From Geomonas oryzisoli (GTDB lineage: Bacteria > Desulfobacterota > Desulfuromonadia > Geobacterales > Geobacteraceae), in NCBI RefSeq assembly GCF_018986915.1, contig NZ_CP076723.1:3964228-3996227 (forward strand): DNA of 32,000 nucleotides, read 5' to 3'. The notes below the pieces were generated by a model, which saw only the letters and a program-made list of their open reading frames with translations, was not told where the DNA came from and did no database searches. This document shows, piece after piece, positions 1,485-11,675 of this stretch (the stretch's first letter is position 1; each line of letters starts with the position of its first letter). A program made the position numbers and the translations under genes.

Positions 1485-4400
1485 TCACGGCGGCGCCCCC
1501 CGGCGCCAGAACACCTCGGTCTCGATGGTGAGCGGGTAGCCGTCCCCCCACTTGCCGGAGATCTCCGCCTTGAGCGCCTTGAGGCGCCGCTCCACCAGGG
1601 CCTTGCTCTCCACCTCGGCGAGGTAGGAAAGCCTGAGCACCGCCGGGGCCTTGCGCAACTCCTTCAAAAGGAGGTCGATCCGCGGCTGCCACTGCCTGCG
1701 CAGCCTGGTTCCGTTGGGTTCGAAGGCGCCGTCGGCGACGTCCAGGGAGACCACGTGGTGGATGGCGGCGCCGAAGTTGAAGCGCAGCATCTTGCCCCGT
1801 GTCGCCCGCTGCACCTGGGGGTTCTCGCCGGTGACGCGGTACCCGGTAGGGAGGGTGCGCTCGTCGAGCTTGAGGATGAAGTTGCTGCCCCGGTCCTGGT
1901 CCGGGACCATCGCGCAGGTGATGTGGAAGCGGCCGAACTCGTCGGTGGTGGCGACGAGCCCCCGGGCGGTCACGGCGCGCACACCGGCGAGCCCCTTTTC
2001 TCCCTGGTCCGGGTAGCCGTTGGTGTTGACGTCGTCAAACACCTTGCCGATCACGTCGGTGCAGTCGAGGTCCGCATCGGGGATGACGCGGACGGTCGCC
2101 GAGGCGACCCCGGAGGCGACGCTGTCGGTGATGTTGCTCAGCACCTGGGCGCGGTTCACGTACTCCCCTTCGGAGACGCCGGAGCCGACGATCATGAGGA
2201 AGGTGATGCTGTGGCTGGTGCTGCTGGTGAGCTGCGAGATGTTCCAGGTCATCTGGCGCGTGTTCTGCGTCGGCTCCGCCTTGCGGCCGTCCAGGCGCGC
2301 CGACCCCGCCACGTACTTGAATCCCGCCGGGAAAGTGTCCACCACGCTCAGGTCCCTGAGGGTCGCCCCCAGGGTGTTGTTGAGGGTGATGGTGTAGGGG
2401 ACCAGGGTGCCGCGCGACACGTCGGTCACGGCCGCGGTCTTGGTGATGGCGATCGCCGTGTTGAGCGTGGGATCGACGGCGATGTGGTTGTTGTAGATCT
2501 GGCTGTAGCCGGGCTGCAGGTTGTCCAGGGTAAGCCGCAGGTAATAGGCGGTAGCGGCGCCGGGGAGGACGGAGGTGCCGGGCGCCAGGTCGGAGGCCTG
2601 CGCCTCGCAGTACCCGGCCGTGGTCGGCACCGCGTCGAAGGCGCCGCCGGGGCAGGAGGGTACCGCGAAGGAGGCGGTGCTGTCGCTGGAGGCCGGGGGC
2701 ACCAGTTTCGAGACGCCCGCCGTGTACCCGGATGCCGGCGGCGTCACCTGGATCAGGTAATCCCCGCCGGAGGGGCAGGAAGGATCGCTGAAGTTGAGGT
2801 CGAACTTGTAGAGGCCGCTGGCCGTGGTGACCTGCCCCTGCTGCACCGGGTCATTGAAGCAGCTCGCGGCGAGAGCTGTCCTGCTTGCCGCCTGGACCAT
2901 GGTCAGCGTCGCGCCCGGCACCGGGGTGCGGACGATGGAGTTGTAGACCACGCCGTTGGGGGTGAGCGGCAGGTTCAGCCCCTGCAGCAGCGTCCCCCCT
3001 CCGGCCACGATGTCGGAGATGCGCTGCATGCCGTTGGTGAAGGGAGAGCTGCACCATCCCAAGAGGGCGGTGGCGGCGCCGGCGCCCGGCGCGCGGAAGC
3101 GGAGTTCATACCTGATCGCGGTGCCGGCGTTGGGGGTCACCCCGCTGAAGCGGTAGGAGCCGTCGGCGGAGCTGTTCACCGTCCCCACCGCGCGGCCGTC
3201 CTGGTACAGCTCCACCGCCCACCCCGCCGACGGGATCTCGCCGCCGTCAAGGACGTTGTCGTGGTTCGCGTCCTGCCACACCGAGCCGGCGAGGCTCGCA
3301 CTCCCCGGCATGCCGCCCACGGTGACCGCGGTCCCGGCGCTCGCCACCCGGGTGGGGGTGTCCCAGCTCGCCTGGGCGGTGTTGTTGACCACGCTGCCGC
3401 TGGACACGGTGGCGTTCAGCTTCACCTGGAAGCGCAGCGCGACGGAAGCACCCGGCGCCAGGGCGCCGTGGCTCGCGCCGTAGTTGGCAGTCAGGACCGG
3501 CGCCGCGTAACTGACCCCGCTGGAGGAGCCGTTCATGACAGCGGAGCCGGAGAGGTAGCTCCCCTGGGGCAGCAGCGGGGTCAGGTCGTCGGTCAGCACC
3601 ACGCCCGTAGCCGGGACCTGCCCTATGTTGGTGGCGCGCACCGTGTATTCCAGGATGCTCCCCGGCAGCGCGGCACCGCCGCCGACCACCACGGCGGACT
3701 TGGTGATGCTGAGCTGCTGGGCGTTCCCCACCGCGATCACCGTGGGCTGGTAGCCGTTGGCGGGGGTGCCGTCGGAGTCGGTGGCAAGCAGCGGCAGTTC
3801 CGCGCTGGCGACGCTCCCCTGGTTGCTGATCACGGTACCCGCAGCGACTCCCTGGTTGACCTGGACCTTGAAGGTTACGACACCGGTGCCGCCTGCCGCG
3901 AGTGTCCCGGCGGTCGCGGGGGGCGCGGGCGGGGTGACTCCCGGGGAGACGACACCGATGCCGTTGGTGAGGGGGGAAACTCCGGCCGCCGCGTCGGCTA
4001 CCGCCGCACCGTTCAGGCGTACGCTGTTCGGGACGTAGGTGGTGTTGGCGGGGATGGCGTCGGTGAACAGCACGCCGGTCGCGGGTGGCGCCCCCGAGTT
4101 GGTCATGGTGATGGTGTACTGGAGCTCGTCGCCGGGATCGACCAGGCCGTCGCCGTTGGCGTCGGCGACGAGCTGGACCGTCTTCAGCGCGTAGAGAAGC
4201 GGCAGGTTGCCGACGATCACGGTGGTCGGATCGTTGGGCACCGGCGTCGCCGGGTTGTCGGAAGCCTCTTCCGGGAACGGGCCGCTTGCCGCACCGGTCC
4301 CGGCCAGGAAGGCCTGATTGGAGATGAGGGTCCCGGCCACGACGCTCCTGCTGATCCTGACCTCGAAGGTGACGGTGGCCACGTTGCTCGCGGTACCGGC

Positions 4401-7400
4401 GGCCGCGGGCATGGTGCCCGGCACCGGGTTCGCGGGCGAGTTGACCGTCATACCCCCCTGCAGCGGGCTCGCAGCGCCGACGTCCGCCACCGGCTTGCCG
4501 TTCAGGGTGGTGCTGTTGGGGACATAGGCGGTGTTCGCGGGGACCTGGTCGCGCAGCGTGACCCCGGTCGCGTTCTCGGTGCCGTCGTTCTTGACGGTGA
4601 TGGTGTAGCGCAGCGTATCGCCCGCCTTGACCGTGGCGCTCCCGGAGGTAACGTCCCTGACCGTCTTCTGGAGCAGGAACCGCGGAGCCGACGCGATGAC
4701 GGTCCGGGTCGGGTCGGCCGTCCCCGGCAGCGAGGGGTCGTCGCTCAACTGCGACGGCAGCAGGGGGGACGCGACCTGCGCCTGGTTCTGCACCAGCGAA
4801 CCGCTGTCGAGCACCGGCGCCAGGGTGTCCTGGAACTCGACCAGCAGCACGTCACCCGCCTGCCCCTGCGGGGCCACGGTCAGGTTGCCGACGCTCACCA
4901 CCCCGGTCCCCTTGCCACCGCCGTTGACCGAGGTGGCGGCGACGTTCGCGCCGGCCGGGACGCTCAACAGCTTCAGCGTTCCGGGTGCGAACATGGCGGT
5001 CGCGTTCAGCTTGTCGAGTTCGTCGGTCAGGGTGAAGTTCGCCGCGCCCAGGGCGCCCACGTTGCGGATGGTGAGGGTGTACTTGAGGGTGTCGCCGGGC
5101 CTCGCGTTGGCACCGGACTGCCCGGTCGTTGCGTTCTGCACGGTCTTGGTGAAGCTCAAAAGCGGCGCCTGGGTGGTCACGGTGAAGGCGTCCTGGCTGT
5201 CGAGTACCCCGGGGGTGCCGTTGGTCAGCGCGGCGGTCGTGGCCTGTATATCCCCTGTAGCGGTGACCGCAGGGTCGGCGCTCAGCCACCTGGTGGCGCC
5301 CGCCACGTTGGTGAGGGTGATCCCCCCCGCCGTGTAGGGGTCGAGCGAGGCGCTGTACGTCACCAGCAGTCGCTCTCCCGGCGCGATGGCCGCCGCGGAC
5401 GACTTCATGGCGACGGTCATGGTGCAGGCGGGCGCGGGGGCGAAGCCCACGGTGAAGTCGGTGCCGTTCACGAGGTTCGCCGAGACGGGGGTGACCCCGT
5501 CGGCCTGGTAGACGCGCGCCGTGACGCCGGTCGGCGCCGAGCCGCACATGCTCCCCGGGGCGGGGGTGGTCACGCTGGGGAGGAGGTCGGTGAGGGTGGC
5601 CTGCCACGCGGTGCTGCCGCCGGTATTCTGGACGTTGAGCGTGAACAGGCCCGGGGCGAGCGCGTTGATGGTGGCCGGTCCGCTCTTTTGCACGGTCAGC
5701 GCGGGGCCGACGATGATGATCGCGGCGCTGGCGCCCGGCGCGCCGTTGGCCTGGGTGGCGGGGGTGCTGTTGACGCCGTTGTAGGTGTAGGTCGCCGTGT
5801 TCTGGAACTGCTTGCCGAGCGTGTTGGCGGCGGAATTGGTGAGCAGCACGGTGACGTTGATCACGGCCTGCTGGCCGGCCGGTATGTCGATGCCGCTGCC
5901 GCTGTCCTGGATCACGAGGCTCGTGGCGCTGCCGCTGTTGACCGGGGTGAAGGCAGGGCCGGAAACCCGCTGGACGCTCACGAAGCGCAGGTCCACCCCG
6001 GTCGCCGCGGCGCTCAAGTCGTCCAGGATGCGCACGTCGTACATGGCGGTGGGCTGAGGCACCGCGGGAACGGTGATGGTGTAGCCGAAGGGGCGGCCGA
6101 TGGCGGCGCTGGTCACCTGGGCCTGCTTCGAGAGCGCCGTGGCCGCCGCGGTGGTGAGCTGCACGGTGGCCGCGCTGGTCGGGCCGTAGAGCTGGCGGTT
6201 GGCGGGTACGCTCGCCGCCGGGATGTCCTGGCTGTCGAAGGAGTAGTAGCCGGTCACCTGCGCCTGGTTGTTCAGGGTCACCCCGGCGCCCAGCCCCGCG
6301 TCCCCCTTCACCTGGTAGGTCACCTGCAGGGTCTGCCCCGGGGGGACCGCGTAGAGCCCCGCCGAACCGGCCGCGTCGAAATTCCAGGTGGCGATACCGC
6401 TGGCCGCGCTGTAGCTCGGGGCGAGCGTGGGCAGGGTGGCGCTGGTCGTGCCGGTGGCGCTGTCCACGAGCGTGACGCCGGTGGTGGTGACGCCCCCCTG
6501 GCGCAGGCCGACCGGCAGGGTGTCGGCGAGGACCGGGTCGTAGGCCGGGGCGGTACCGCTGTTGGCCATCCTGACGGTGTAGGTGATCGCCTCGCCGGCG
6601 CTGATCACCGTGCCGCCGCCTGCCGTGGCCGCGCTCTTGGTGACGTTCAACAGCGGTTGCCAGACGTTCAAGGTGGCGCCGGAGTTCTTCGGGGTCGCGG
6701 CCACGCCGTTGATGGCGTAGTTGAGCGTGGCGCTGTTGACGAGCTGCTGCGCCGTCGGGGACTGCGCCAGCGCGTTCTTGACCACGTGGGCGCGGTACTG
6801 GATGGTGAGCGTGTTGTTCGCCGCGTTGTTGTCGGCCGTGTTGACGACGTTGCCCAGGTTCCAGGTCAGGGTGCCGGTGGCGCCGGGCGCTGGCTGGGAG
6901 GAGACCGTGTAGCTGAAATTGCCGCTCCCCGAGGCGGGGGCGATGCTCACCAGGGCGTCGTAGGCGAGGCCGGCCGGGAGCTGGTCGGTGAGCACCACGT
7001 TCTGCGTGGTCCCTTCCCGCAGGGTGAGGGCAAGGTTGTAGACCACGGTATCGCCCACCCGCACGGTCGCGTCGGTCGCACTCCCCGGTGCGGCGCTCCA
7101 GGAATCGGAGACCACGGTTTTGGCGAGGGCGGTCGGGTCCAGCGAGGAGACGGTGGCGGAGACCGGGCCGGAACAGTAGTTGTTGGGAAGGGTGGTGGCG
7201 GGGCAGCCGGCGCCTGTGCGTTCGCCGGGGACCGAGCCGGAGAGCGAGGTCCAGTCGACGTAGACGTCGTTGGTGATGGGGGCGCCGCTGGTCTCCAGCA
7301 CGGTCACCAGGTAGCTCAGCACCAGGGTCCCGCCGGCCGGGATGTCCAGGCTCGCGTCGCCGTTTTGGCTCCCCCAGTCCACGGCGCCGCTGGGAAGAGC

Positions 7401-10115
7401 GGCGGGCGTGGGCATGAAGCCGGTCACCGGCGCGCCGTTGATCTGCGCGGTGGCCGAGCCCGGTACCAGCGAGACGTTGGCGGGAAGGAAGTCCATGACG
7501 TCGGCATCGTAGGCCCGGGAGCCGCCGTCGTTGGTGACGGTGACGGTGTAGCGCAGGACGTCTGCGGGGGCCGCGGCGGCGGACGCGGCTTTCCCTGCCG
7601 GGGAGGCGTAGCCGACCGCCTTGGCCGCGGTGAGGTGCGGTTCGACCACCGTCATGTTGGCCGTGGTCGCCGCGCCGCCGGCCGACTGGGTCAGGCTGTC
7701 GCCGTTTAGCTTGTTGTAGGTGTAGGAAGCGGTGTTGCTGAAGCTGAGTCCAGCGCGGTTCGCACTGCTGTTCTGCAGTGCCGCCGTCACCTGGATAACC
7801 GCCTGCCCCCCCGCCGGTATGTCGATGCCGGTGGCGAGGTCCTGGAGGATGACGTTGGTCGCCGTGCCGGTGTTGGTGAGGTTCCAGTTGCCGCCGGAGA
7901 TGACGTCGGCACCGACGAAGCTCATGCCTGCCGCCGAGAGCCCCAGGTTGTCCAGTATCCTCACGTCGTAGAGCGGGACGTCCGCCGGGGTGGCGGGTAC
8001 CTTGATCAGGTAGCTGAACTGCTGACCGACGGTCGCCGTGGTCGAGGCAGGGTTCGCCTTGGAGAGTGCCCCCGGCGCCTGGATGGTGACCCTGGTGGGG
8101 TCTCCGCCGGAGCCGAGCAGCACGGTCCCATTGCTATAGGGATCGTCGCTCGGGCCGGCCCAGACCGTGACGGGGTTGGTGCTGGTGTCGGTCCCGGTGA
8201 CGCCGGCCTGGTTGGAGACGACGGTGCCGTTGGTGAGGGTCGCGTCGAGGGTCGCGTCGAACTCGACCTGGATCTGCGCAGTGGTGGTGGCGCCACCGGG
8301 GAGGGTGAGGCCGGAAACGGTGACGGACCCCGGGGTGCCGCCGCCGGGCTGGGTGACGCTCACCGTGCCGCCCGCCGGGGTGACGGTGACGTTGGAGACG
8401 GAGCGCAGCCCGGCCGGGAGGGTATCGGTGATGGTGACCCCGTTCAAGGGGGGCCAGGTGAAGTTCTGCAAAAGCAGGGTGTAGTGCAGCCGGTCTCCCG
8501 GAAAGGCCGCCGTGGCCGGATTGGCTCCGGTGGTCAGGTCGCGCACCGTCTTCTGGAAGTAGTAGCCTGCCAGCGCGGCGGTCACCGTGTAGGCATCCTG
8601 GAAGTCGAGGGTGCCGGGGGTGCCGTCGGTTATGGTCCGGTCGTACTCGCGGCGCCCGGGATAGCCGCTGTTGGCGCTGAACCACCTGGTGGCGCCGGCG
8701 ATGTTGGTGAGCGTCGCCCCCGAGGCGACCCCGGTGCTGTCGACCTGCGCCCGGTAGGTGACGATGAGGCGCTGGGTGGGGGCGATCTTGGCGGAATCGA
8801 GCAGGGTCAGGGTGAGCTGCCCGGGGGAACCGGGGCCGCCGCTCCAGGTGGTGGTGAAGTCGGTGCCGCTCACCAGCGGGGCCGACACCGGGGTCACCCC
8901 GTCGGAGGCGAAGACCTGGGCGCTGATGGTCCCGACCGGGGAGACGGTGCTCATGCCGGCCGGGATGTGGTCGGTGATGGTGGCGTTCCACGCTTCGCTT
9001 CCGCCGGTGTTCTGGACGTTGAGCGTGTACCTCACCTGTGAATCCATGTTGACCGTCGCAGCCGAACCGCTCTTGGTAAGGGTGAGGTTCGGCTCGACCA
9101 CCGTCATGGGCGGGGTGGTACCGGGCCATGCCTGCAGGTCCACCATGCTGGTGCTGTTGATCGGTTTGTTGAACCACATGTTGGCGGTGTTGGAGAACTG
9201 CGACCCCGCCTGGTTCACGCCGGCCGGGTTGCTGTCGAGGACGACGGTGACCTGGATCTCCAGGTTGTACCCTGCCGGGAGCGAGGCCAGCGCCGGGTTG
9301 TATTCGTAGGAGAAGACCAGGTGCCTGGTGGCGTCCGAGAGGACGCCGGGATGGCTGCTGAGCCAGCCGCCGCTCGCCCCGAGGGTGAGCGGCGCCCCTC
9401 CGTTGAGCGGCGCCCTCGCGCCGGTAGCGGGGTTCACGAGGTAGGCGGCGTTGGTCACGTAGCTCAGGGCGGCGCCCGTGGCGGTCAAGTCGTCGGGGAT
9501 GACCACGTTGGTCACCGTGGCGTCGTCGCTGTTGGCGATGTACTGGAACGTCCCCGTCGCGTCGAGTTTCCCCAAAAGCGGCACACTGATCGTATAGGTG
9601 AAGGGGACACCGACGGCGGCGGTGCTTTGCGCCGGGGGATTCTTCTTGCTCACCGCGTCGACCGGCACCATGAAGGCCTGGCAGGCCGGGCTGATGTTGT
9701 TGTACCCGCCCGGAGCCCAGTAGATCCAGAAATCGGACTGCGTCGGGTCGTTGCACGACATGTTGCCGTAATAAAAGACGTTCAGGAACGCGATGTAGTA
9801 GGATTGCTGCTGCGGGAAGTTGAAGTTTATGTTGGTGATCGGGAAGCCGCCGATGGAATCGGGGAAGTTCTTGATGGTGCAGTTGGTGTCGATCCCGAAG
9901 GTGGACGCCCCCCTGACCGCGGCGAGGGTGGCGGGGTTGTTGCCGTCGACCACGCCGCCGAACTGGGAGCAGAAGATCCCCGCTGCCCGGGCAGACGTGC
10001 CCCATCCGACCAGCATGACCAAAAGGGCGGCGGTCGCAGCCAGGCGCGCCACGGACCTGGCGGCGCCCATCCTGGCGGCGGCCATCGATAACATCAGCTT
10101 TGTCTGTGTCAGCAT
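1485..10115 (-). CDS. Giant secreted repeat protein (roughly 2,880 aa): N-terminal signal peptide, Cys-containing head domain, three isopeptide-D2-like modules, about eleven DUF11 (TIGR01451-type 'conserved repeat') domains, and two SdrD-B/Cna-B-like domains; putative adhesin or surface-layer component
   Basis: ORF 1485..10181 (2898 aa). The likely start is ATG 10115 ([46 protein letters not shown]); alternatives are 10094, 10085 and 10070. Recurrent DUF11 signatures are present (LTKSG...[81 protein letters not shown]). Cna-B-like segments are [16 protein letters not shown]...DGSYRFSGV and [23 protein letters not shown]...DEFGRFHI. There is no LPXTG motif, T1SS-type RTX repeat or autotransporter beta-domain. 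Confidence 0.9.
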   Translation of the reverse strand: [2876 protein letters not shown]

Positions 10116-10186
10116 TCTCACTTCTGCCCTCGATGAAGATCGCTCAACTACTGTTGCGGCCCTTGGCAGGCCGACCTGCACGCACC

Positions 10187-10236
10187 ACGAAAAAAACCCG
10201 CGCCACAGCCGGTACTTCGGCTGATGACGCGGGTTT
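10187..10236 (-). terminator. Strong rho-independent terminator between the 57-codon ORF and the giant gene
   Basis: The minus-strand RNA reads AAACCCGCG-uca-UCAGCCG-aaguac-CGGCUG-ugg-CGCGGGUUUUUUU. This gives 9-bp outer and 6-bp inner stems followed by a run of 7 U. On the plus strand the hairpin has no U-tract. Confidence 0.7.
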
Positions 10237-10308
10237 CACTTGCCCCGTAGGGATGAGACTTACCGCTGTTTCAATGCTGCTGTCGATTTTCCGGCCGGGG
10301 TGGCCGGG

Positions 10309-10482
10309 TCACTTCATTCTTTCGTTCCTGATCGCGTCGCAAACGCGGTAGTCGGCGATGTTCACCGTGACCTGCAGGTGCGGCGCGGAAAGAAGCCCGA
10401 TCTCCTTCATGCACTCGGTCAGCTTTCGTTTCCACTCCGGGTCAAGGGTTCGTTTGGTCAATTTTTCCATTGCATGCCTCAT
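10309..10482 (-). CDS. Hypothetical 57-aa protein, the first ORF downstream of the tandem riboswitches
   Basis: Not in the ORF track (below 60 aa). It runs from ATG 10482 (in-frame ATG 10470) to TGA 10311-10309. The RBS-like AGGAAAG sits 5 nt upstream. The translation is MRHAMEKLTKRTLDPEWKRKLTECMKEIGLLSAPHLQVTVNIADYRVCDAIRNERMK. No family was recognised. Confidence 0.45.
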   Translation of the reverse strand: MRHAMEKLTKRTLDPEWKRKLTECMKEIGLLSAPHLQVTVNIADYRVCDAIRNERMK

Positions 10483-10499: not shown

Positions 10500-10539
10500 A
10501 AAAAAAGAGCGCTCCCATCTACCGAAGATGAGAGCGCTC
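10500..10539 (-). terminator. Intrinsic terminator of riboswitch unit A (promoter-distal unit)
   Basis: The minus-strand RNA is GAGCGCUCUCAUCU-ucggu-AGAUGGGAGCGCUC followed by UUUUUUU. One position is a G-U wobble on the minus strand but a C-A mismatch on the plus strand, which fixes the functional strand. Confidence 0.8.
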
Positions 10540-10575
10540 CTAGATCGGGGGGGGTGCCGGATGCCAAGATGCTGA

Positions 10576-10661
10576 CTCATCTCTTCGGCAACCCGGCTAT
10601 CCTTCACAGGACCCGTGGCTTTGCGTCACCAGATCACTCTGGTTTTGCCCGTTCGGAGAAC
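10576..10661 (-). promoter_or_regulatory. GEMM-I (c-di-GMP-I family, Rfam RF01051-type) riboswitch aptamer, unit A
   Basis: The minus strand reads GUUCUCCGAACGGGCAAAACCAGA-GUGA-UCUGGUGACGCAAAGCCACGGGUCCU-GUGA-AGGAUAGCCGGGUUGCCGAAGAGAUGAG. It has the conserved GCAAA(A)CC box, a GNRA-capped P1 hairpin, the GACGCAAAGCC core, a P2 hairpin and the GGUUGCCGA 3' strand. Confidence 0.85.
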
Positions 10662-10702
10662 GTATTCTGTTTTAAATCGCGCCGACGCCTCGCGGAGCCA
10701 AT

Positions 10703-10741
10703 AAAAAAAGGCGCTCCCATCTGCCAAAGATGAGAGCGCCT
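10703..10741 (-). terminator. Intrinsic terminator of riboswitch unit B (promoter-proximal unit)
   Basis: The minus-strand RNA is AGGCGCUCUCAUCU-uuggc-AGAUGGGAGCGCCU followed by UUUUUUU. It carries the same minus-strand-only G-U wobble as unit A. Confidence 0.8.
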
Positions 10742-10774
10742 CTTGATCGGTAATAGCGGATGCCAAGATGGGAA

Positions 10775-10862
10775 CTCATCTCTTCGGCAACTCGGCTATC
10801 CTCATTCAAGGACCCGTGGCTTTGCGTCACCAGATCACTCTGGGTTTGCCCGTTCGGAGAAC
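10775..10862 (-). promoter_or_regulatory. GEMM-I (c-di-GMP-I family) riboswitch aptamer, unit B
   Basis: The minus strand reads GUUCUCCGAACGGGCAAACCCAGA-GUGA-UCUGGUGACGCAAAGCCACGGGUCCU-UGAAUG-AGGAUAGCCGAGUUGCCGAAGAGAUGAG. It has the same architecture as unit A, about 200 nt upstream of it. Confidence 0.85.
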
Positions 10863-11023: not shown

Positions 11024-11437
11024 TCAAGCGGTTTTGCACCGCCCCCCTGACAGGTCCCCCACGAACGCCCCCAGCTTCGCATCGCATTCGCGGATGTGGT
11101 GATTGACCCAATGGTCCAGGATAACCAGTTGGTCGATGCTCAGGCTGGCGCTCGCGGTTCGAGGCGTGCGGATGTCTATCATCCTCTGCCTGAAGATCTC
11201 ATGTTCATCCCTGTGCGCCAGGAAATCGGGATAGCAGGTGTCCATCATCAGCATCTGCTCGTAGTCGAAACACTGCGCCATGTACACCAGGATCTCGTCG
11301 AAGATGTACCCGTCCGGAGCCGGGCCTGTCATAAAGCGGTCATACGCTTCATTTATCTTCTCAACCACGTACTTGTGACACTGATCGATGTCTTCAATAC
11401 CGACCACCAGGTCTGAGGTCCATTTCGTGTTAAACAT
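11024..11437 (-). CDS. Hemerythrin-like metal-binding protein (bacteriohemerythrin family), 137 aa
   Basis: ATG 11437 is preceded by GGGAGGG 3 nt upstream; the track's 11449 start is a GTG inside the RBS. Hemerythrin motifs are present: W..DLVVGIEDIDQCHK, HRDEHEIF and WVNHHIRECDAKLG. Confidence 0.8.
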   Translation of the reverse strand: MFNTKWTSDLVVGIEDIDQCHKYVVEKINEAYDRFMTGPAPDGYIFDEILVYMAQCFDYEQMLMMDTCYPDFLAHRDEHEIFRQRMIDIRTPRTASASLSIDQLVILDHWVNHHIRECDAKLGAFVGDLSGGRCKTA

Positions 11438-11541
11438 AAGCCCTCCCACGGCATCATGCCAAGCACCCGAACGTTCACACTGGATATTTTGTCGTATCGA
11501 AACCGGCCCATGCCATGCTGGTCTCCCTGCGCCTGAACGCG

Positions 11542-11649
11542 AAAAAGCCGGGGCTTCGATATCAGGAGTGATATTTCGGCGACCCGGCTGTCTCGGTGAG
11601 ACCCTTTAGGCTTTCCGTCCCATCCTCGCGGATGGTTTAGTATTTTCGT
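11542..11649 (-). promoter_or_regulatory. Variant GEMM-I-like cyclic-dinucleotide aptamer (about 11573-11649) plus a putative terminator-type expression platform (11542-11589), in the hemerythrin leader
   Basis: The minus strand reads ACGAAAAUACUAAACCAUCC-GCGA-GGAUGGGACGGAAAGCCUAAAGGGUCUC-ACC-GAGACAGCCGGGUCGCCGAAAU. It has the GEMM-I layout (AAACC box, GNRA hairpin, GAC-G-AAAGCC core, second hairpin, AGCCGGGU.GCCGA). The canonical GC...GC closing pairs are replaced by the covarying CU...GG. The aptamer strand AGCCGGG (11589-11583) can instead pair with CCCGGCU (11552-11546), which is followed by UUUU. Confidence 0.55.
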
Positions 11650-11675
11650 GTATCGGTTCTTGTTATTGCGGACGC

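Follow-up and report, generated by a model that had tools for sequence, protein, structure and literature searches.

On the minus strand of a 32,000-nucleotide (nt) stretch of the Geomonas oryzisoli genome (NCBI RefSeq assembly GCF_018986915.1, contig NZ_CP076723.1, positions 3,964,228 to 3,996,227; hereafter the window, with positions counted from its first letter), the 5′ leader of a Geomonas-like (Geobacteraceae) operon appears, on balance, to hold two independent class-I cyclic di-guanosine monophosphate (c-di-GMP) riboswitches in series, here called unit B (upstream) and unit A (downstream). Each unit combines a GEMM-I aptamer with its own expression platform and intrinsic terminator, and kinetic modelling suggests, with moderate confidence, that each acts as an ON switch. 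Downstream of the leader, the operon has a small open reading frame (ORF) for a protein of 53 amino acids (aa), a short conserved element with a terminator of its own, named element X, and a giant gene for a repeat surface protein.

Anatomy and conservation of the two units

An Rfam covariance-model scan of the window, run at the gathering threshold and with clan competition, returned three aptamers of the GEMM-I clan in total, all on the minus strand, and units A and B are full-length, untruncated members of this clan (GEMM-I, or c-di-GMP-I). Unit B matched RF01051 at 10860-10783 with 61.5 bits against a gathering threshold of 35 (E = 6.7e-10, model positions 1-87 of 87), and unit A matched RF03167 at 10658-10583 with 62.6 bits against a threshold of 59 (E = 1.1e-12); a weaker clan match that overlaps a reported one and passes its own threshold does not appear in the output, and we infer that it is RF01051 on unit A. 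The preliminary description of this DNA, made from the letters alone, had placed here two complete GEMM-I units in tandem on the minus strand, each with its own terminator and with a period of about 200 nt, and had proposed an Infernal cmscan search as a check; this search gave significant matches for both units, and the rest, including the place and the overall anatomy, is borne out by the covariance models, by the terminator scan and by 31 related loci, the period being 202 nt. The two units are 88% identical across ∼200 nt, and their similarity reaches ∼30 nt upstream of the aptamers.

As for the related loci, a protein-guided scan of one genome per species gave 12 of them (L001-L012, from Geomonas, Citrifermentans, Geotalea and Geobacter metagenome-assembled genomes); the metagenome loci (L013-L034) are 22 matches to a 20-mer of element X, three of which, inside GC-rich coding DNA, were dropped as chance. 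Pairing conservation was scored on 30, and then on 68, distinct units from these loci, against slid controls and shuffles.

Both aptamers show the GEMM-I architecture, namely two hairpins, the first with a GNRA tetraloop, and a closing helix P1 formed by the 5′ and 3′ ends. In unit B, P1 pairs UUCUCCG (10861-10855) with CGAAGAG (10786-10780), extending 3 nt beyond the Rfam match; the first hairpin is capped by a GUGA tetraloop, and P2 comes next. In unit A, the 3′ strand of P1 is CGAAGAG at 10587-10581 and every helix is canonical, so that the initial statement that both copies keep all pairings holds for this unit; it fails for unit B, where the cmscan alignment has two non-canonical pairs, a C.U at the base of the first hairpin and a C.A in P2, from CCGAG. 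The C of unit B (in AAAC) is unique among the 68 distinct units, which have A, G or U at that place, and it is missing from the orthologous B units. Over the 30 to 68 distinct units the aptamer helices are 98.7-99.2% paired, against 28-49% in slid controls; the tetraloop is GUGA, GUAA or GAAA, and the first hairpin displays an A-U to G-C covariation, seen in four related units, while P1 has no covariation support because it is invariant.

Regarding the terminators, the terminator scan found one in the expression platform of each unit, with a U7 tract at both. The U7 tracts had been described correctly; the stems, first given as 14 base pairs (bp), are 16-17 bp long once the basal A-U and G-U pairs are counted. 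The G-U wobbles that had been said to be valid on the minus strand only are real (in unit A, U.G 131/147 and G.U 122/156). Pairing of the terminator stem occurs in 94% of cells, against 39-70% in slid controls, and seven stem pairs have changed on both sides across the related units, a score that none of 500 shuffles reached; among the competing folds, the terminator is the only structure with strong covariation. The bases of the two terminators in the window differ by two compensatory swaps (GGAGCGC/GCGCUCU vs GAGGCGC/GCGCCUU). Both terminators are therefore shown to be real and under selection. Terminator B is separated from leader A by 41 nt, and a consensus promoter scan of this gap, a weak one, found no promoter.

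The ligand pocket is the same in the two units: the cmscan alignments place G20, A47 and C92 (Vc2 numbering) in ACG-G-GCAAA, GACGC-A-AAGCC and GUUG-C-CGAAG, respectively. A47 is also a ligand-contacting residue, and the label "GGC" of one Rfam variant stands for positions 20, 47 and 92. The differences between units A and B in the internal loop (AAAA vs AAAC) and in the P2 loop lie outside the ligand-contacting positions. One guanine of the ligand is recognized by G20 at its Hoogsteen edge, the other guanine pairing with C92 (PMC6140456); wild-type Vc2 binds c-di-GMP in the picomolar range and cyclic GMP-AMP (cGAMP) only at 10 μM (PMC6140456). In the cGAMP class, position 20 is an A (PMC6140456; PMC9481103). 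Units A and B both carry G20 in place of the A20 of the 3′,3′-cGAMP class (GEMM-Ib), and judged by these residues they should be canonical c-di-GMP sensors.

The assignment of unit A to RF03167, the c-di-GMP-I-GGC variant, was considered and rejected: despite the 62.6 bits, the defining G47 is absent, the unit having A at this position, GACGCAAAGCC (GACGCAAA), where the model consensus has G, GACGCGAA. Since the defining G is missing, the GGC label is a cross-hit between very similar models. All 68 related units were likewise excluded from the GGC (RF03167) and UAU (RF03168) variants by the residue at the defining position. This is a pitfall for annotation: Geobacteraceae GEMM-I aptamers with G20, A47 and C92 pass the thresholds of both RF03167 and RF03168, and units with the canonical pocket are then named as variants after clan competition.

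Competing structures and the direction of switching

Each platform can adopt four mutually exclusive structures: the aptamer with P1, an alternative hairpin named H_alt, an antiterminator and the terminator. According to constrained and unconstrained folds, segment S1 (the 3′ strand of P1 and its tail) has three possible partners: the 5′ leader, giving P1; segment S2, giving H_alt, which also invades the 3′ strand of P2; or the 5′ arm of the terminator. The four mutually complementary segments noticed in the preliminary description are thus recovered by the folds. H_alt, which lacks a U tract and is the minimum-free-energy structure when no constraint is set, is a 16-bp hairpin: the 3′ strand of P2 and the tail (GCCGGGU / GCC / GAGAUG) pair with the segment that follows (CAUCUU / GGC / AUCCGGC). 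The antiterminator joins GC.AUCUUGG to C[A/U]AGGAGC at the base of the terminator, and AUGAG to CUCAU; when P1 is enforced, this structure is predicted in 31 of 31 units, at -11 to -18.6 kcal/mol, and when P1 is absent it lengthens, GCCGAAGAG pairing in addition with the apical arm and the loop of the terminator.

All three alternative pairings are conserved: H_alt is paired in 93-95% of cells (94.6% in the 68-unit set; 25-46% in slid controls), the short antiterminator in 92-94% (37-60%) and the outer helix of the long antiterminator in 90% (35-46%). Nevertheless, in the 30-unit and then in the 68-unit set, the covariation of none of them is clearly above that of shuffles, although they are 90-95% paired, because S1 is invariant; covariation cannot, therefore, separate ON from OFF. 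In the 30-unit set, H_alt displayed two compensations, GCC:GGC to ACC:GGU via G.U (L010) and U-A to A-U (L009_3792), of which only that of L010 persisted after realigning the 68-unit set. In L011_3754 the linker has been replaced, and a new 6-bp helix, UGGCAG:CUGCCA, preserves the inner antiterminator.

The mechanism proposed for an ON switch is the following. In the ligand-free RNA the weak P1 (UUCUCCG:CGAAGAG) would be outcompeted by H_alt, which would join the aptamer 3′ strand and tail (CCGGGUUGCC-GAA-GAGAUG) to CAUCUU-GGC-AUCCGG; once formed, H_alt would leave the 5′ arm of the terminator free, the terminator would fold and transcription would stop. Bound c-di-GMP would lock P1 and P2 and so block H_alt, and the freed GC.AUCUUGG and AUGAG would pair with the terminator 5′ arm (C[A/U]AGGAGC and CUCAU), giving the antiterminator and read-through. 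Full-length RNA would need read-through at both units, so the pair would be shut off more tightly than one unit and respond more steeply to the dose of a single ligand, that is, the pseudo-cooperative, "digital" response described for tandem riboswitches.

Thermodynamic folding placed the terminator in every full-length minimum-free-energy fold, with P1 enforced or not, and is therefore uninformative on polarity. Folding barriers were estimated with Findpath for unit A, medians over 31 units being similar: 8.0 kcal/mol from the S1:S2 hairpin to the full H_alt, 6.0 from the S1:S2 hairpin to the long antiterminator, 13.3 from H_alt to the long antiterminator, 3.5 from H_alt to the terminator, 4.5 from the ligand-state antiterminator to the terminator, and 16.6 from the long antiterminator to the terminator, a step for which the 31-unit median is invalid owing to crossing pairs. 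A crude, home-made co-transcriptional master-equation model was then applied to five units. Without ligand, the S1:S2 hairpin led to H_alt and then to termination in 81-100% of the molecules. With the aptamer locked, the antiterminator formed before the 3′ arm of the terminator emerged in 96-100% of the molecules of four units, against 0-1% without ligand; in unit A, for which the "holo" runs were re-seeded as unseeded runs never arrived at the native P1, it reached ∼86% with the aptamer locked and was absent among the listed apo states. The formation of the antiterminator is the sole ligand-dependent event in the model, which therefore points to ON; as modelled, this is the direction of a switch and not a working switch.

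Other observations are consistent with ON. S1:S2 pairing is kept even where S2 has changed (L009, L010 and L011, once with compensation), a complementarity that an OFF design would not need. The giant repeat surface protein is also a fitting target, as proteins of this kind are usually switched on by c-di-GMP. Comparable delta-proteobacterial units have been predicted to be ON switches (PMC9481103).

Several points weigh against two ON switches in series. The single transcript with both units is putative, and the terminator of element X stands between the riboswitches and the giant gene. The covariation of the antiterminator does not go beyond that of shuffles. In the model, the terminator displaces the ligand-state antiterminator, so that both states terminate and read-through is never reproduced, the barrier for this displacement being only ∼4.5-5.3 kcal/mol vs 3.5 from the free state. 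Finally, three traits point to OFF: the ligand-free RNA, if cut before the 3′ arm of the terminator, folds into the longer, loop-covering antiterminator; the loop GG used by this structure is kept in 66 of 68 units; and the aptamer and the terminator of each unit do not overlap, as in the OFF switch Cd1 (PMC9262584).

These traits belong to a second, more tentative interpretation, in which the same two c-di-GMP riboswitches stand in series and each is an OFF switch. Without ligand, the tail GCCGAAGAGAUGAG(U) would pair with the apical 5′ arm and the loop of the terminator (CUCAUCUUCGG) and S2 with its base, and the resulting long antiterminator would leave the terminator no nucleation site, allowing read-through; with ligand, P1 and C92 would sequester GCCGAAGAG, the nucleation site would be exposed and transcription would stop. 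H_alt would be only a transient competitor of P1, which shortens the time window for ligand binding. In its favor, the ligand-free transcript, cut as above, has its minimum free energy in the long antiterminator, 13 kcal/mol below H_alt in unit A; displacing this structure by the terminator costs 16.6 kcal/mol, against the 4.5 of the ligand-state antiterminator, and it alone hides the nucleation site. Besides, its outer helix is well conserved, the GG is kept whereas other loops vary freely, and a non-overlapping aptamer and terminator bridged by an antiterminator with the 3′ strand of P1 is the classical OFF layout, e.g., in Cd1 (PMC9262584). On the other hand, the S1:S2 hairpin and H_alt arise earlier in the co-transcriptional model and act as a trap: with a barrier of 13.3 kcal/mol (also the median) from H_alt, the long antiterminator is essentially never populated. 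In addition, L014_2000 and L025_4499 have no loop GG, and a giant surface protein would be an unusual target of repression by c-di-GMP.

Related loci, downstream genes and further readings

The features of the window that bear on the leader and on its neighborhood are collected in Table 1.

Table 1. Positions of the two riboswitch units and of the neighboring features in the window
Feature	Position	Strand	Details and basis
Unit B (upstream) c-di-GMP-I aptamer and 5′ leader	10783..10862	-	GUUCUCCG; RF01051 match; alignment to 68 related units
Unit A (downstream) c-di-GMP-I aptamer and leader	10583..10661	-	RF03167 match
Unit B switching segments	10756..10788	-	S1 GCCGAAGAGAUGAG 10788-10775 (P1 3′ strand and tail); S2 CCAUCUUGGCAUCCGC 10771-10756
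Unit A switching segments	10556..10589	-	S1 GCCGAAGAGAUGAG 10589-10576; S2 GCAUCUUGGCAUCCGGC 10572-10556
Unit B intrinsic terminator	10703..10744	-	Hairpin 10744-10706; 17-bp stem AAGAGGCGCUCUCAUCU / AGAUGGGAGCGCCUUUU, 5-nt loop, U tract; terminator scan
Unit A intrinsic terminator	10500..10541	-	Hairpin 10541-10505; 16-bp stem AGGAGCGCUCUCAUCU / AGAUGGGAGCGCUCUU, loop UCGGU, U7; terminator scan
Conserved 53-aa ORF, first downstream gene	10309..10470	-	42 homologs, E down to 1.6e-25; AGGAAA, like a ribosome-binding site, upstream
Element X	10190..10267	-	40-nt motif AGCGGUAAGUCUCAUCCCUACGGGGCAAGUGAAACCCGCG and GC-rich intrinsic terminator (ACCCGCG...CGCGGGU and U7); between small ORF and giant gene
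Giant gene	1485..10121	-	∼2880 aa, repeats of DUF11 and of related Ig-like type; presumed end target of the leader
Third GEMM-I aptamer	11575-11651	-	RF01051, 45.3 bits; A at position 20 (AAUACUAAACC)
Sigma-70-like promoter site of third riboswitch	11704-11676	-	Promoter scan
Hemerythrin-domain ORF after third riboswitch	11024-11449	-	Domain match

All 12 genome loci have GEMM-I units of this type upstream of the small ORF, and in 11 of them the small ORF is followed by a long open frame that extends past the end of the locus, L009 being a truncated contig; 19 metagenome contigs repeat the layout, with one to three upstream units and zero or one downstream. Copy number varies among the genomes: there is one unit in L008, two in the window, L001-L004, L006, L009, L011 and L012, and in L005, L007 and L010 three upstream units, with a further one past element X and ahead of the giant gene. 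The units of one genome are often each other's nearest relatives (98% identity in L006, 100% for two units of L010, 96% in L012), so the array evolves by repeated duplication or conversion of whole units; L003 and L004 have B-type units at both positions. In the lineage of the window, the positional orthologs in Geomonas diazotrophica and G. propionica share 92-96% identity with unit A, and those of unit B share 93-94% with it, against 88% between A and B: going by these identities, the A/B pair is older than the separation of several Geomonas species, and the early remark that the two copies are not a recent duplication holds for this lineage.

As for the first downstream gene, the homologs of the 53-aa protein that carry an organism name are all from Geobacteraceae (Geomonas and Citrifermentans), the closest being that of Geomonas diazotrophica, with 94% identity. 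The protein is basic, with invariant WKRKLT, IGL and ADxRV motifs, and it had no family match in Pfam; its AlphaFold2 model, with one helix and a beta hairpin, scores too low to serve for a fold search (mean predicted local distance difference test score, pLDDT, of 59). The position of its gene, first behind the riboswitches and immediately ahead of element X, makes the protein a candidate regulator.

Element X was found in L001-L012 and in the 19 metagenome loci, and only in this operon. Its core is almost invariant in 30 distinct copies, while the flanks and the distance to the stop of the ORF vary; L006 and L009 carry a partial second copy of the core. The core could fold into a UACG-capped hairpin or an alternative GGG:CCC hairpin. 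A search against Rfam gave no family match, and the idea that element X is a decayed riboswitch unit was discarded, as no GEMM match appeared even at E ≤ 10, only noise (Leu_leader, 17 bits, driven by the terminator). Element X is possibly a new conditional terminator or a protein-binding RNA.

The mechanical ORF of the giant gene spans 1485-10181, with a GTG start at 10181 that would place its first codons just past the U tract of element X; the start is probably GTG 10121 or ATG 10115, after a conserved GAGGG resembling a ribosome-binding site, and the alignment of orthologs agrees. The U tract of element X lies only 45-70 nt before this start, so the giant gene is probably reached by read-through of element X. 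In this arrangement, the tandem riboswitches would control the small ORF directly, and the giant gene only via a further gate, element X.

Such an arrangement could be part of a multi-gate cascade, a doubtful extension of the above, in which one to four c-di-GMP units gate the 53-aa protein, and element X, a new cis-regulatory RNA possibly read by the 53-aa protein or by another ligand, gates the giant gene. The platform would also be an unusual relay: the aptamer would block H_alt, H_alt would block the antiterminator, and the antiterminator would block the terminator.

It is unlikely that the aptamers bind c-di-GMP while the strong terminators downstream are effectively constitutive, the ligand only remodelling H_alt; the units alone would then barely alter read-through, and regulation would come from another factor, from RNA stability or from the expression of the small ORF. 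This would fit with the terminator forming in all thermodynamic and kinetic models, aptamer locked or not, and it has a precedent in Bc1, where a ligand-sensitive first terminator is followed by an insensitive second one that masks the response (PMC11218506). Against it, conservation in the 68 distinct units takes in the whole platform and does not stop at the aptamer and the terminator, and the repeated amplification of complete units to two to four copies per locus is hard to explain if they only terminate.

The third GEMM-I aptamer of the window lies ∼700 nt upstream of units A and B and differs from them in having A20, the signature of the cGAMP class; its terminator (11589-11542, AGCCGGG...CCCCGGCUUUUU) is built from the 3′ strand of the aptamer itself. 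It is conserved in L001-L004 and, from its sequence, looks like a cGAMP-type ON switch of pilM-like design. No obvious terminator was seen between the hemerythrin gene and the tandem units, and cGAMP-dependent read-through from the third riboswitch into the c-di-GMP leader is conceivable.

That units A and B themselves sense different ligands (e.g., c-di-GMP and 3′,3′-cGAMP) and form a two-input logic gate, as the preliminary description had hinted, is highly improbable and was rejected from the pocket residues: although cGAMP variants of GEMM-I exist in Geobacteraceae, one of them 700 nt upstream in the window, and unit A scores best with a "variant" Rfam model, G20, A47 and C92 occur in both units whereas the cGAMP class has A20 (PMC6140456; PMC9481103), the G47 that defines the GGC variant is absent, the differences between A and B (one C, one A and the P2 loop) sit in helices and loops, and the C of unit B is not shared by orthologous B units.

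Comparison with known tandem and single riboswitches

Tandem GEMM-I elements were reported when the motif was discovered, in 2007, and they account for one third of the delta-proteobacterial GEMM elements (PMC1950547); in a survey from 2022, c-di-GMP-I exceeded every other riboswitch class in tandems, with 347 doublets and 12 triplets, filed as pseudo-cooperative and with multiple platforms (PMC9481103), and tandem GEMM-Ib units work in series in G. sulfurreducens (PMC6456294). The tandem c-di-GMP-I arrangement is thus real but already well described: this locus and organism are one more example, and the tandem by itself matters little, hundreds having been catalogued. Element X alone has real potential for novelty. 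Otherwise, the orthologous loci offer a natural series of one to four copies of the same unit that could be used to test copy number against the dose response to c-di-GMP, and a platform with a detached terminator and H_alt, whose polarity is unreadable from sequence, is a good test case for co-transcriptional folding methods.

The triplet of B. thuringiensis also precedes a large adhesin gene. In the survey, this triplet is mentioned as a further known tandem (ref. 93 in PMC9481103). With the known c-di-GMP-I tandems (PMC1950547; PMC9481103), units A and B share the aptamer class, the separate terminators and the repetition of near-identical units in one leader, and by analogy a pseudo-cooperative, more digital response to a single ligand would be expected; unlike them, their platform is a relay of four structures and not a terminator that directly overlaps the aptamer.

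The GEMM-Ib tandems of Geobacter (e.g., upstream of GSU2885, omcAHG; PMC6456294) and the pilM ON switch (PMC9262584) come from the same bacterial family and also control termination. They differ in having A20 and sensing cGAMP, and the terminator of pilM overlaps the 3′ strand of the aptamer, whereas in units A and B the residue is G20 and the terminator is detached; the overlapping design, common in this family, is used in the window by the third riboswitch (11542-11651) and not by units A and B.

Two single riboswitches are comparable in the layout of the platform. Bc1 (PMC11218506) similarly has an aptamer, then a ligand-sensitive hairpin and then a strong second terminator that forms regardless of the ligand; the first hairpin of Bc1 is itself a terminator, whereas here the strand freed from H_alt complements the 5′ arm of the second terminator, offering a route to antitermination. 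Cd1, the OFF switch of Clostridioides difficile (PMC9262584), resembles units A and B in that its aptamer does not exclude the terminator and its antiterminator bridges the two via the strand that closes the aptamer; Cd1 differs in having no equivalent of the S1:S2 hairpin or of H_alt, and in its polarity, which is known to be OFF.

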